Source of the DNA: Eledone cirrhosa
Taxonomy: Eukaryota
DNA: 64,000 nt
Direction: 5' to 3'
NCBI GenBank assembly: GCA_964016885.1
Contig: OZ024757.1
Location: 17,050,001 to 17,114,000, forward strand
Under the pieces are notes generated by a model. It was not told where the DNA came from and did no database searches. It was given only the letters and a program-made list of their open reading frames with translations. The translations under genes and the position numbers were made by a program. Positions 21,210 through 60,126 of the stretch are shown here, in pieces (positions within the stretch are counted from its first letter, which is position 1; each line of letters begins with the position of its first letter).

Positions 21210-21271
21210 TATTCTATTATATATATTTCAAGGGTACCAACAATTTTAGTACGCTATCATCAGATAAAATA
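21210..21271 (-). ncRNA. Hammerhead ribozyme, family D
   Basis: Minus strand: TATTTTAT-CTGATGA-tagcGTACTA(loop)TGGTACcctt-GAAA-tatata-TA-ATAGAATA. Confidence 0.75.
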
Positions 21272-22584
21272 GGAAGTGTGTTTTATAAATTTTGACATAA
21301 CCAAGGAGAATATACCTTAACGGTTCAAGTTATCCTTGGATATATATATATGAGTGCGTGTGTGTGTATTTGTGTATATATATATATATTTATATGTGTA
21401 TATATATATATATATGTGTGTGTGTGTGTGTTTGTTGGACCTCCGTCATTTCCAACGAGTGCTCCAGCTGATTCAGTCAACGAAACTGCCTGATCGTGGT
21501 ATCAACATGTAAGTGGCCAAGCATACCACAGACATGTTCACCTTTATCTTGTATAGAGTCTTTATTGAACTTTGGTCCCTTTGAACCACACATAACCCCG
21601 TCCCAATATGGGAGGTCAGTAGCCTCGTTTCAATCCTGACTCAATTTGTGAAGACGCCCGTTGCTAACTTCAAGAGAGCATATTTAGTATAATTTATGAA
21701 GTTTTGATTATAAACACACACATATATATATATATATATATACACACACACACACATACATACATACATACATACATACATACATACATACATACATACA
21801 TACATACATACATACATACATACATACATACATACATACATACATACATACATACATACATACATACATACATACATACATACATACATACACACACATG
21901 CTTGAATCATTGACGTAGCTTCATGGCTATAATACACATATATCAATATATTTCCCATTTGTTTTGGGAGAGGGAATTATCCTTTCAGAATATGTTAATG
22001 GCAATATATATAACAACCCAATAATTCACAGGACCCAGTACAAGACACCATACACATAACAGGGAAGCCTCTAATACGGTCTCTTAAAATATTCAAGATA
22101 GCAGTTAAATCACCCTCAAATTACATGTTGTATGAATGTTCTAAATATTATGTGGTCATAGCTGGAATGCCTCTCATCTAGGTCAATCCTATGCCAGCCT
22201 AGGGCTAAACAACAAGGAAGCCGCAATCCTGAGCCTCGTTTTAGTATTAAGACAATACACCACACACTAGTGATAATTCTACACACTCATATACAGACAT
22301 TAATAAAGTCACCTTGTTAACAATATTAAACATCAGTCTCTCTCTCTCATTCTCTATCATCTATTATATATATATATATATATATATATATATATATATA
22401 TATATATATATATATATATATATATATGTATATATATATATATTTAAAGGTTAAACAAGGTTCAATGAATAAATCAAAGAATTAGTTTTACAATAGATTG
22501 GAAGCACTCAACAATTATGGTTTTCCGGAGTTATTAATATTAATTCAAAATATTAACAAAAATAGAACTTCTTGTGATCAAGTA

Positions 22585-22652
22585 TATTTTATTATACATA
22601 TTTCAGAGGTACTGAGCTAACTTCAACAGTACGTCCCTCATCAGATAAAATA
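22585..22652 (-). ncRNA. Hammerhead ribozyme, family D variant
   Basis: Minus strand: TATTTTAT-CTGATGA-gGGAcGTACTG(loop)CAGTACcTCT-GAAA-tatgta-TA-ATAAAATA. Confidence 0.8.
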
Positions 22653-23188
22653 ATATGATGCATGACATACCCTGACATAGTAGATGGTTAAGATCCAGTC
22701 GTGGTAGCGAGTAAGATATGATAAAACTCAATATTTATATACCTTAAGATTGAGACATGAAAAAACTTTCATATAATACAGAGGGATATATATATATATA
22801 TATATACTCCTTATATGTGGATACACATACAGATACATATGTATATATAATGGGCTTCCACAGTTTCCACCTACCAAATTTCTCTCCTAAGGCATTGATA
22901 AGCCTGTGGCTACTGGTTCAAGAATCAATCTGCAGTAGGACTGAACCCTAAACCCACATAGCTGCAAATCTGAATCCTTATTACAACACATCTACAGTGT
23001 TTCAGCAAAGCAAATGCTTGCCAAACCTTAGTGATCACTTGCTTTGCTGAAAATGTAGCTTCCTCCTGTGGACTATTAATATCACGAGACATATTATGTG
23101 TGTGCGTGTTAGTCTATATATATATATGTGTGTGTAATATATATATATATATATATATATATATATATATATCATTATATATAATTAA

Positions 23189-23378
23189 ATGGCAGTGGAT
23201 TGGCAGTATCGGTGGAGGGTCGGACGCCATGCTTTCCAGCATAGTTACGTCCCTTTACGATCTGAGTTCAAATCCCGCCGAGGTTGACTTTGCCTTTCAT
23301 CCTTACGGGGTCGATAAAATAAAGTACCAGTAATGCACTGAGTAATTGGTGGCCTTGTGCCTAAAGTAGAAACAATTA
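23189..23378 (+). mobile_element. Full-length tRNA-derived SINE, the main family in the window
   Basis: A box TGGCAGTATCGG, B box GAGTTCAAATCC, central GCCTTTCATCCTTACGGGGTCGATAAAATAAAGTACCAG and a 3' end GTAGAAACAATTAT. Confidence 0.85.
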
Positions 23379-57085: not shown

Positions 57086-58789
57086 CTACCCCCTCGGGTC
57101 ATTATGGGGTTTGAGGGCGAGGTAAGTCCTACGCAATCTATGTTTACATGCAGTAACCAGTTCATCTTTCTTGTTTAGGAGTTGGTCCGTCGAAAACAGC
57201 ATTTGTAAAGTTTCCTCCGAGCATAAATTGCACGGACGGCGTCCTCCCGTGTAAGAATTGGCTCTGGACAGTAATCTCCAAGTGAGATCATAGGTGATGT
57301 TGTTGTCCTTGAGGTCCCATATGTGGCCCGAAAGTGTAGTGGCGTGACGCCGGGCCGGGTTTCGGAAGGTATGTCTATGTTGGTATAGCCGGGTCTTGAA
57401 GTCACATGCGGTAAGTCCTATATAGGCTTTGTTGGAGGTATCCGTCCTCACGTTGCACTGGTAGATCACATTACGGTCTCTGCATCTATTGTCGAGTGGG
57501 CAAATAGATCTATCCGGGCAGTTACACCTCCTGGTCGGTTCTCCACTGCTAATTAGGTTATTTCTGCCATCGGGGTTGAGTTTTTTGTTGTTAGAGGAGA
57601 CGATGTTTTGTGCGAAGTTTGGTGTAGTGCTGTAAGAGAGTTTGATGGTATTTTTGTTAATTATGTTGTGGTAGCGGTGTTGTAATGGGAAGTGTTTTTC
57701 AATGAGCCTAAAGAATAGTTTCCCGATGGGAGTAGTCACCTCTGCGTTGTGGGGAGGATTGAACCATGTTACATTGCGTGAGCGGCGGTGTCTCCTGCTG
57801 GTTCCGCTAATGGGAGCTGGACAGTAGGATATTTCCTCCCGGAAACCACTCCGCTTGAGGGCCTGGTTGTAATAAGGCGCATGTTCATCGAATATCCGCT
57901 CATTAGCTGACAAACGGGATATGCGGAGGGAGATGTTTTTGACCAGGTTGTTTGTGATGTTCCTAGGATGGTTTGATCGGCGGTGGATGTAGTGCAGATT
58001 GTCATTAGGTTTCCTGTATGGATAGTACAGGTCGTTTTCGAGGTCGAGGGTTACGTCCAGGAAGTTTACTCGGGTCAGGGACGTTTGTAGGGTTATTTTA
58101 AATCCCCAGTCGCGGAAGAATCTGATTAATTGTTTCCGGACCCGATCTGTACTACTGGGGTTGTACCCTTTAAGGGTAAGGAGCCCATCATCACGGTACA
58201 ATCCACCACCGAATGCAGGAAACATATCAATGAGTTTGGCTATTAGGAATAATCCTATAAGATCAGTGACCTCCGCCGAATCCGTGGCGCCCATGCTGAC
58301 GTCGAAGGGTGAGTCGGGAGCTCTTTTTATCCATTTAGAGTCGTCAAAGAGTAAGACTGTCTTCCTGGCGTGGAGGATGATTTTTCTTTCCTGGTCGGTG
58401 ATGGGCACTAGTGTTTCGGCGAAGTCCAAGGCTGCAGTAAGTAGCGGTAAGGTGATTGAAGCATAGTAGCTCTATATGTCGAACTGTATGAATTTAGTTT
58501 ATCGTTTATCCTCCATATTGCTGAACCAGGAGATTACTTCCTGGGTGTTGATCCATAGGCTAAGTCGGGTGTGTTGCTTGACTTTTGGTATCACGCGGTC
58601 TAGGATTTTTTTGCTGATTCTCCCTATGTCGGACTTCGTTGGGTTAATAAGCCTGATGGAGGGTTTACGGTCAAAATCGGATTTATGGTCCTTCAGTGTG
58701 AAGTATGGTGTCCGTGGGTCTAGAGGTTCCGTGCGGTCGGCGACCCCGAGGCTGGAGGTGATTTGTTGTCCATCTCGATTTATGTCCTT
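57086..58789 (-). pseudogene. PLE reverse transcriptase-GIY-YIG endonuclease polyprotein, 5'-truncated, with two in-frame stops (58499-58501 and 58472-58474); open from 58471 to 57086
   Basis: Hand translation upstream of the 447-aa ORF gives YFTLKDHK...RLINPTKSDIGRISK...QFDI*SYYASI. Then come MGATDSAEV, LYRDD, FLDV, SNHP, the CNCx5C linker, VIY...YIG, FKTR, CNLCSEE and LLNK. Confidence 0.92.
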
Positions 58790-59218
58790 GCCTTATCCGT
58801 CCCACCTAGTTCTCTTACTTATTTCCTTATTTATTTATTTATTTATTTATTTACTTCTTTCTTTCTTTCTTTATTTTATTCTCGCCTAACAATAGCCTGA
58901 CACCTAGGTCGTAGAATTTAATTTACTTTACTTTTTTCTTTACACTTATTTGCTTTTCTTCACTCTCAGTATTTTTTCTTTCCTATTTCTACCCCCCATT
59001 GTTCTACCTACCGTTCCGACTTCCTCCCCCTCCCCCTCCCCTGTATCTTCTTTGACCTCATGCCCAGATGTAGCTGGCACTACCAACGCTTGATTGGGTC
59101 TACTCCACCCCCTCCCCTCTTTCTCCTACTGGCAGGTTTAGCCACCATCTCCCCTACTAATTTGCAACCACAGAATTACTACTGATTTTTGACAATCACT
59201 TTGACCATATATGGAATT

Positions 59219-59312
59219 ACCCCTTGAGAAGATCGGCTATTTAAATACCAGGATAAATTTTCATTTAGTCCAGAATTAGCCGTCGAAACGGCTTGAGCTC
59301 AGCTGTCGGGGT
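59219..59312 (+). ncRNA. Inverted second copy of the U3-A8 hammerhead; predicted cleavage after C59307
   Basis: Same fold as 55880-55973. Confidence 0.75.
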
Positions 59313-59908
59313 CTTACTGGTTCCTATATATATATATATATATATATATATATATATATATATATATATATATATATATATAGAGAGAGAGAGAGAGAGA
59401 GAGAGAGAGAGAGAGAGAGAGAGAGAAAGAGAGAGAAAGAGAGAGAGAGATGTGTATCCAGGGTTCAATCGGGGGTAACCACAGTAAGTAAGGGACTCAC
59501 ATCATAGCAGAGTGTAAATAGTTAATATAGAAATGGCTTCTACAGGACTAGAACTGTTTCATTCAAAGGAAATCATTCCTTTGAAAATAATAATCAGGTA
59601 TAACTATAAAATAAAAAAATTACCTGAATTTTTTTTTAGGGAAGGGATTTTTTCTAGGTTTTGTTCGCGTGTTTTCAACTAATCTGACCTTTGACATGTT
59701 CACAATTGACTTTTTATTTTCCGAAAGTGGAATTTGGTCGTCGGAAAAGCAGCCGGGAAAAAAAGGCGATTGCGAGCATGTCGAGGTCAGATTAGTTGAA
59801 AGCACACGTAAAAAAAAAAAAAACACGTAAAAAAAAAACAACCTAGCAATATATATATATATATATACGATATTAAATAAATGGAAACTATATTTATAAA
59901 ACCATATT

Positions 59909-60126
59909 TATTTCATTATACATATTTCAGGGATACCAAATTAAAATATGGCATGCCTTCGTCAGATAAAATACAATATATAAACAGTTGACAGCTTCCA
60001 AAAATAATGGTCGCTTATAATAGGGTACGTCAAAATTATTTATAAAACTGTTTATATATTGTATTTTATCTGACGAAGGCATGCCATATTTTAATTTGGT
60101 ATCCCTGAAATATGTATAATGAAATA
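59909..60126. ncRNA. Divergent pair of family D hammerheads (59909-59973 minus; 60062-60126 plus)
   Basis: TATTTTAT-CTGACGA-AGGcATGCCA(loop)TGGTATcCCT-GAAA-tatgta-TA-ATGAAATA on both strands. Confidence 0.8.

Follow-up and report, generated by a model that had tools for sequence, protein, structure and literature searches.

Hammerhead motifs in Eledone cirrhosa that probably mark 3' ends of Hydra-clade Penelope-like elements

The stretch of Eledone cirrhosa DNA analyzed in the current study (64,000 nucleotides of GenBank assembly GCA_964016885.1, contig OZ024757.1, positions 17,050,001 to 17,114,000 of the forward strand; referred to as the window and numbered from its first letter) contains two families of short repeats, D and E, that carry hammerhead ribozyme motifs. 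These repeats are probably 5'-truncated 3' ends of Penelope-like elements of the Hydra clade, and in a tandem transcript their motifs would pair via stem III, with a predicted cut after AUA. A Penelope-like origin had already been proposed in the initial annotation of the window; it is supported here and narrowed to the Hydra clade by the shared element ends and a shared tail hairpin. The existence of dimer-type, covarying hammerheads in Penelope remnants is already established for the class, and D/E represent a new shape of a described ribozyme.

The hammerhead motifs and their stems

A two-strand scan of the window, which has a GC content of 36% and is rich in microsatellites, short repeats, and fold-backs, yielded eight hammerhead motifs with an intact core, i.e., seven of family D and a single one of family E. 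Each consists of CTGAYGA, a folded spacer of 26 to 36 nt, GAAA, an 8-nt palindrome, an A, and a stem I strand. The motifs are named after the position of core C3, which is 51247, 52268, and 60070 (plus strand) and 21263, 22644, 51565, and 59965 (minus strand) in family D and 52665 (minus strand) in family E.

60062..60126, plus strand: family D hammerhead 60070; stem I 60062-60069/60119-60126, core from 60070, stem III palindrome 60110-60117, predicted cut after 60118; stem II of 3 bp, C-C (60080/60103), and 6 bp (AGG/CCT, ATGCCA/TGGTAT)
59909..59973, minus strand: family D hammerhead 59965; mirror arm of the inverted locus of 60070, with a motif identical to it
52260..52324, plus strand: family D hammerhead 52268; stem II fully paired (AAG/CTT and ACACCA/TGGTGT); tail-less, (TA)n near 52367
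51239..51299, plus strand: family D hammerhead 51247; U-U break at 10.2-11.2; tail-less, (TA)n near 51341
51508..51573, minus strand: family D hammerhead 51565; stem II shared with 60070 and a slipped stem I; within the inverted locus 51459-51723
21210..21271, minus strand: family D hammerhead 21263; U-U at 10.1-11.1; ends without a tail at (TA)n
22585..22652, minus strand: most divergent family D hammerhead, 22644; extra G after A9; GGA/TCT and GTACTG/CAGTAC; tail hairpin 22502-22531; (TA)n end near 22440
52603..52673, minus strand: family E hammerhead 52665; 3 bp, C-U, and a long distal helix; stem III ATGCGCAT; axis of the fold-back 52560-52767

The D/E hammerheads and the stems quoted for them in the initial annotation were all found in the sequence at their proposed sites, and their identity as hammerheads was borne out by the core, since CUGANGA, GAAA, and U-H occur in type I order together with A15.1-U16.1 in 8/8 motifs. 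Stem I is open-ended and stem II is closed. The pattern read off the copies had eight matches in the window versus none in 100 shuffles, which is evidence of a repeat family and not of function. A model based on five D copies recovered two copies on which it had not been trained, i.e., 22644 with 62.7 bits and the E copy with 41.9 bits. Rfam provided no match at the gathering score, none of 82 weak Rfam matches in 50900-53000 belonged to a hammerhead family, and scans with D/E-type patterns returned no locus from metagenome contigs and none from viral contigs.

Two candidate features next to the motifs were set aside, namely a 58-codon open frame upstream of 51247, which is broken in the other copies and was taken as chance, and a long extension of stem I (60038-60048/60132-60142), which lacks covariation and does not occur in 22644 or E. 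The word GGGTAYGTCA is located 20 to 45 nt upstream of D cores (60022-60031, 52221-52230, and 51208-51217 on the plus strand; region of 22664-22673 on the minus strand). This word looks like a 5' splice site, its pairing with the 3' strand of stem II is possible as well, and a similar word opens the Hydra-1_Obim consensus.

Stem II is a two-part helix with 3 bp on the core side, a mismatch, and at least 6 further bp. Because 59965 and 60070 are the arms of one inverted locus and 51565 shares their stem II, the number of independent D stems is five. With the two redundant copies dropped and one extra base after A9 allowed in 22644, the only one of the eight motifs that needs it for alignment, the six distinct sequences, anchored on the core motifs, pair in 52 of 54 stem II cells, and two-sided changes were found at six of the nine pairs among the five D stems. 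The null expectation was obtained by placing an equal number of changes randomly on an assumed tree with a fully paired root. Pairwise double changes exceeded it both for the five D stems (25 versus a mean of 4.6; 0 of 20000) and for the four closest ones (9 versus 1.0; 10 of 20000), and the same holds for the number of paired cells (43 versus 36.1, 79 of 20000, and 34 versus 29.5, 378 of 20000, respectively). The paired changes described initially accordingly exceed a tree-aware null. The statement that the stem II pairs are kept is valid for most cells, but there are breaks in 51247, whose core-side stem reads G-U, U-U, G-C, and in 21263, i.e., in core-side stems that the initial annotation had omitted.

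An alignment-based count used the five well-aligned copies, as the alignments misplaced both 22644 and E; in these copies both stems are pairing competent (81 of 85 cells paired), with a covariation score that was reached by 1 of 500 shuffles. A 13-row alignment was discarded, because five of its rows came from the mirror arm of E, which is broken, and from four matches with an E value above 0.2 and because it was fitted to the structure. The 5' strand of stem I in the E motif mostly mirrors the start of its own stem II, and due to this location at a fold-back axis its stem I pairing is not independent evidence. All in all, the covariation signal of stem II is real, but it stems from few events.

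The mismatch had been placed about four pairs from the core and is found exactly at the fourth position in 7/7 D copies, always as C-C, and as C-U in E; its constancy over the five stems is weakly beyond chance. The tertiary contact proposed for it is possible but unsupported, as no conserved partner was seen in stem I and the opposite stem I bulge is not conserved in sequence. Most likely, the C-Y mismatch marks a kink or a protein-binding site between the 3-bp core-side helix and the stabilizing distal helix.

The mismatch also bears on a very unlikely explanation of the paired changes, namely quasi-palindrome template switching by the element's reverse transcriptase (RT) or by DNA repair, which would leave the motif as a decayed relic. 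The window is indeed full of fold-backs, and the E motif is located at the axis of one. However, arm-to-arm copying would erase mismatches, whereas the C-C persists between 60070 and 52268 while the flanking pairs change on both sides, and template switching is therefore insufficient. Moreover, G-U pairs are retained and re-formed, the variation in the core and at N7 is exactly what a hammerhead permits, and every copy has its stem II inside a single arm, away from the fold-back axis.

Variation was also found outside the window. The stretch 59990-60255 is present in six public runs from three studies with three organism labels, four of which were aligned at 80% likeness (5695, 1092, 18, and 3 contigs); these are contigs of unspecified kind, which provide no measure of expression or cutting. 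Among 31 variant rows, 19 are located inside the motif, i.e., two at N7, six in loop II, 11 in the stems, and none in the catalytic core. Eight of the stem rows preserve the pair alone, two need a partner change, which is listed in both cases without established linkage, and one breaks the pair. Pair-keeping stem variants are mostly changes to or from G-U, and G60114A retains the palindrome. The rows T60106C and A60077G suggest that a minority may carry G10.1-C11.1. The lack of variant rows at C60080 and C60103 is non-discriminating, as 11 of the 18 paired stem II positions also have none. A U is present at position 3 in one loose-end consensus, and (AT)n loose ends follow behind 60172 in 57 contigs of run X1. 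The approximately 500-fold fall in depth toward the 5' end in this run was not used as proof of truncation, since it does not represent copy number and also reflects upstream divergence. In run X4, one contig extends to about 770 nt upstream of the motif.

Element ends and a Hydra-clade relative in the window

The distance between the predicted cut and the (TA)n at which all D/E copies end is about 50 nt, to which a tail of about 85 nt may be added. The 3' ends form inverted pairs at four D/E loci, and in 4/4 of them one end is tailed and the other one is tail-less.

59860..60256, both strands: inverted locus between (TA)n tracts; plus arm tailed (to 60256), minus arm tail-less
51459-51723, both strands: inverted locus; the minus arm is hammerhead 51565, the other arm is the tail
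52478-52767, both strands: inverted locus that contains the fold-back with E at its axis; tailed arm to 52478, hairpin 52532-52560
47803..47960, both strands: family D inverted locus, truncated 3' of the core; minus arm tailed, plus arm tail-less
51851..52029, plus strand: 5'-truncated relative of the 22644 copy with the 3' half of the motif and tail hairpin 51943-51971
60175..60198, plus strand: tail hairpin ACTC...GAGTRCTT, about 57 nt past the predicted cut and a few bases past the short 3' end

The hairpin ACTC...GAGTRCTT, with which the tail opens, has 10 matches in the window compared to 0.08 expected. It is common to D, E, and a Hydra-clade element with an open reading frame (ORF), designated family G.

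55787-59327, minus strand: decayed Penelope-like element with an inverted terminal copy (548 bp, 99% alike)
57086..58790, minus strand: decayed ORF encoding an RT with YRDDG, a CxCX5C linker, a GIY-YIG-like motif, CxxC, and CxH
55880..55973, minus strand: family G hammerhead with a U3-A8 core, a long bulged stem II (54-nt region), and a 5-bp stem III with palindromic loop; mirror copy 59219-59312, plus strand
55787..55865, minus strand: family G tail with the same hairpin at 55832-55859

The inverted 5' copy of family G, which ends at 59327, lacks the tail. YRDDG, CxCX5C, GIY-YIG, CxxC, and CxH are marks of the Hydra clade (PMC8557442), the ORF closely follows Hydra-1_Obim by eye, and the ESM Atlas gave RT/GIY-YIG-type clusters. 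Searches with the ORF returned no Pfam match, no relative of solved structure, and one weak match among viral sequences. Judged from its sequence, the family G element is a Hydra-clade Penelope-like element. Family G 3' fragments are located at 1400-1615, 15100-15356, 19555-19714, 28734-28889, 37561-37755, 49289-49465, 49892-49990, and 50574-50861.

The traits of Hydra-clade 3' ends are all present, i.e., (TA)n insertion, 5' truncation, an inverted copy, and a one-sided tail (4/4 loci). Inverted truncated copies, one-sided tails, and (TA)n targeting have been described in PMC8557442, and the tail has been linked to two RT start sites (PMC11167929). A G-C version of the hairpin was recognized by eye in three of six published Hydra consensus sequences: GCTC...GAGCAC follows the hammerhead in Hydra-2_Amil and Hydra-2_Ajap and is located at the 5' start of Hydra-1_Ajap. 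By the same inspection the hairpin is partial in Hydra-1_Crog and was not seen in Hydra-1_Amil and Hydra-1_Obim. Since the tail hairpin is shared with both the Hydra-clade element of the window and half of these consensus sequences, D/E are likely Hydra-clade 3' ends.

An origin of the motif in another (TA)n-targeting Penelope clade, Naiad or Neptune, e.g., from cephalopod Naiad "half-core" motifs, is extremely improbable. It is true that PMC8557442 reports HHR_half_core for Naiad_Ovul and Naiad_Esco with core halves 35 to 50 nt apart and (TA)n targets, but in a comparison that covered Naiad sequences, 3' ends of about 600 letters from each of five cephalopod consensus sequences showed no likeness to D/E by eye. 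Three D motifs had no match in the supplement text of PMC8557442, where line breaks may hide matches, one Naiad motif had no match in the window, and the tail hairpin ties D/E to Hydra.

Further tail-hairpin matches on the plus strand (18648-18673, 1352-1374, and 2019-2041) are found in repeats outside D, E, and G; such matches suggest that there are more Hydra-type families. The same hairpin is present in family F (2075-2186 and 59450-59570 on the minus strand, 20447-20575 and 50950-51027 on the plus strand, 23441-23485, and 14470-14548), whose start resembles the 3' half of a different hammerhead (GAA, a 4-bp stem III with an 8-nt loop, and A) and of which no copy with a 5' core half was seen.

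Dimer format, proposed mechanism, and a short-element alternative

Stem III is fully self-complementary, with G-U allowed, in 7/7 copies examined, which represent three variants (59965 equals 60070), and the cleavage triplet of the D/E motifs is AUA; the palindrome and triplet reported initially were thus confirmed. According to the folding energies stem III forms no hairpin as a monomer. The computed cost of closing it is 2.9 to 3.7 kcal/mol, and the swapped dimer gains 4.2 to 6.6 kcal/mol for D over two open monomers. The D/E motifs are predicted to cut only as pairs. Penelope hammerheads in pseudo-long terminal repeats (pLTRs) have been reported to have a palindromic stem III and to cleave at a low level as dimers (PMC4209133; review, PMC6765202), and covarying hammerhead families have already been published for Penelope-like elements (PMC4209133).

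In the proposed mechanism, the source element would be transcribed in tandem, and two motifs would swap their stem I strands, pair through stem III, and cut after AUA. The RT/GIY-YIG protein would nick (TA)n DNA on both strands, and reverse transcription would start at one of two RNA sites, either directly in front of the tail hairpin or some 85 nt beyond this point. The combination of two start sites and nicking of both strands would then produce short, often inverted copies. The compensatory changes would have arisen in the active source of each subfamily, and the majority of genomic copies would be dead and drifting. Paired changes separate the subfamilies and private changes break pairs, which argues for selection on the source elements and drift in the copies. 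Selection on structure across subfamilies, as initially proposed, thus most likely applies to each subfamily's source elements, but not to the copies in the genome, which are truncated, broken in part, or fixed in fold-backs.

Several observations weigh against an origin of D/E from Hydra-clade elements with dimeric hammerheads. No D/E copy in the window is joined to any ORF, and the parent is deduced from the shared ends. Head-to-tail D/E copies are absent from the window, which contains no full D/E element, and same-strand neighbors are separate insertions 1.0 to 1.4 kb apart. The G10.1-C11.1 pair, called highly conserved in PMC4209133, is missing from 8/8 motifs, which have A-U, G-U, or U-U instead; U-U or U at this site is also known from published Hydra (PMC8557442) and axolotl (PMC7229834) motifs. 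In the five-copy count, the number of two-sided pairs was reached by 55 of 500 shuffles and the number of pair types by 484 of 500, and among the public contigs G60099A breaks a distal pair in 18% of the depth of run X1. Furthermore, in none of the seven copies is the active dimer the cofold of lowest energy, and the AU-only duplex of stem III is weak, with -2.2 to -3.2 kcal/mol. Since the active dimer is not favored, assistance by a protein is likely for dimer cleavage according to these models. Finally, the hammerhead of PAc, the Poseidon element of Anolis (Frangieh et al. 2024, PMC11167929), was tested with its protein; it cut only in the presence of the protein, was dispensable for insertion, and had no read ends at the cut site. 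In PAc, two RT start sites bound the tail downstream of the hammerhead, as in the D/E model, and both DNA strands are nicked and extended at an AT-rich target. Unlike D/E, which are known from sequence alone, PAc belongs to a different clade, and its tail lies within the start of the ORF.

The lack of an attached ORF is in line with an unlikely alternative, according to which D/E are non-autonomous elements of about 270 to 300 nt (non-LTR retrozymes or similar) that borrow the Hydra-clade protein, perhaps via circular RNA. Their low GC content and unit size fit the retrozymes of PMC7229834, and animal retrozymes have been derived from Penelope pLTRs (preprint 10.64898/2026.07.22.740005), so that the readings shade together. 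At 51073-51458, a segment preceding the motif recurs behind it across (TA)n, which resembles a partial head-to-tail repeat, but the occurrences of this segment (50103, 51073, and 51370) have one end fixed at (TA)n and the others ragged, which fits an independent element on the opposite strand. Moreover, the unit forms no tandem array among the 145 tandem-repeat rows of the window, the 64 kb contain no head-to-tail repeats in which each unit has a hammerhead, the upstream sequences differ by subfamily and stop at different points, and the public contigs on 59990-60255 exhibit no joint that closes a unit at the cut site. The segment copies at 50103-50224, 51073-51181, and 51370-51458 could come from the upstream part of the 51247 subfamily or be the minus-strand 3' end of another element.

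Comparison with known systems and implications

The published Hydra-clade hammerheads (PMC8557442, File S2 and S7), including that of Hydra-1_Obim, resemble D/E in being type I motifs near the 3' end of elements with a (TA)n target. In them, GAAA is preceded by U or C, often by U as in D/E, the base of stem II frequently has a U-U, a G, or an extra nucleotide, and stem III is self-complementary, and they occur with inverted truncated copies and one-sided tails; in some consensus sequences the hairpin RCTC...GAGYRC follows the motif as in D/E. In contrast, their stem II has 3 to 7 bp without an inner mismatch instead of 3 bp, C-Y, and at least 6 bp, their stem III has 3 to 4 bp and a loop of 1 to 3 nt ending in GU instead of a loopless, AU-rich 8-nt palindrome with AUA, and their tail has 30 to 40 bp instead of about 85 nt; D/E moreover lack a linked ORF. 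Compared with published hammerheads of Penelope-like elements in general, D/E lack G10.1-C11.1, have an extra base after A9 in one of eight motifs, a stem I of at least 8 bp versus 4 to 5, and the fixed C-Y mismatch, which is absent from the description of those hammerheads.

Non-LTR retrozymes (PMC7229834; preprint 10.64898/2026.07.22.740005) share with D/E their short, low-GC, high-copy, and ORF-less nature, and the axolotl retrozyme HHR_Amex2 has a U-U at the base of helix II as in D/E and cleaves better as a dimer (PMC7229834). Unlike retrozymes, D/E lack tandem arrays and the canonical contact bases between loop 1 and loop 2, and their ends occur in inverted pairs and with tails. No description of a fixed C-Y in a two-part stem II, a loopless AU-rich stem III with AUA, or the Hydra tail hairpin was found in a literature search conducted outside subscription papers, Repbase, bioRxiv supplements, and the figures of PMC4209133; the giant squid paper, in its accessible part, counts Rfam hammerheads only.

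Other repeats of the window comprise two minimal hammerheads of the classical Penelope type with a short stem II and GAAACGT (1045 and 38376, plus strand) and long fold-backs at 1412-1525, 28734-28883, 31383-31683, 37578-37693, 50593-50760, 52780-52908, and 59659-59815, several of which are inverted element ends and which yield spurious matches to microRNA families. In addition, there are young minisatellites with 95 to 97% matches at 39121-39931 (27 nt, 30 units), 7331-7728 (81 nt, 4.9 units), and 62736-63154 (85 nt, 4.9 units); the 81-mer unit is a fragment of a repeat resembling a short interspersed nuclear element.

A more far-reaching reading, which we consider possible but doubtful, is that Hydra-clade elements end in a conserved module of hammerhead and tail hairpin (RCTC...GAGYRC), which the RT protein binds in order to set the two start sites. 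The D/E ribozyme would then have been rebuilt, with the C-Y mismatch as a protein or tertiary docking site that lets the AU-only dimer cut. The tail hairpin has a G-C version in coral and sea cucumber and an A-U version in D/E. If this reading is true, the module would be a cross-phylum cis-element for the unsolved priming mechanism of Penelope.

If the assignment of D/E to Hydra-clade 3' ends with dimeric hammerheads is right, the range of Penelope hammerheads would grow by a high-copy structural variant that escapes short-spacer searches, as the core halves are 26 to 36 nt apart in D/E and 54 nt in family G versus the 7 to 17 nt searched in PMC8557442. Natural compensatory variants would be available for cleavage tests, and the shared tail hairpin would be a specific candidate for the RNA element by which the start of Penelope reverse transcription is set.

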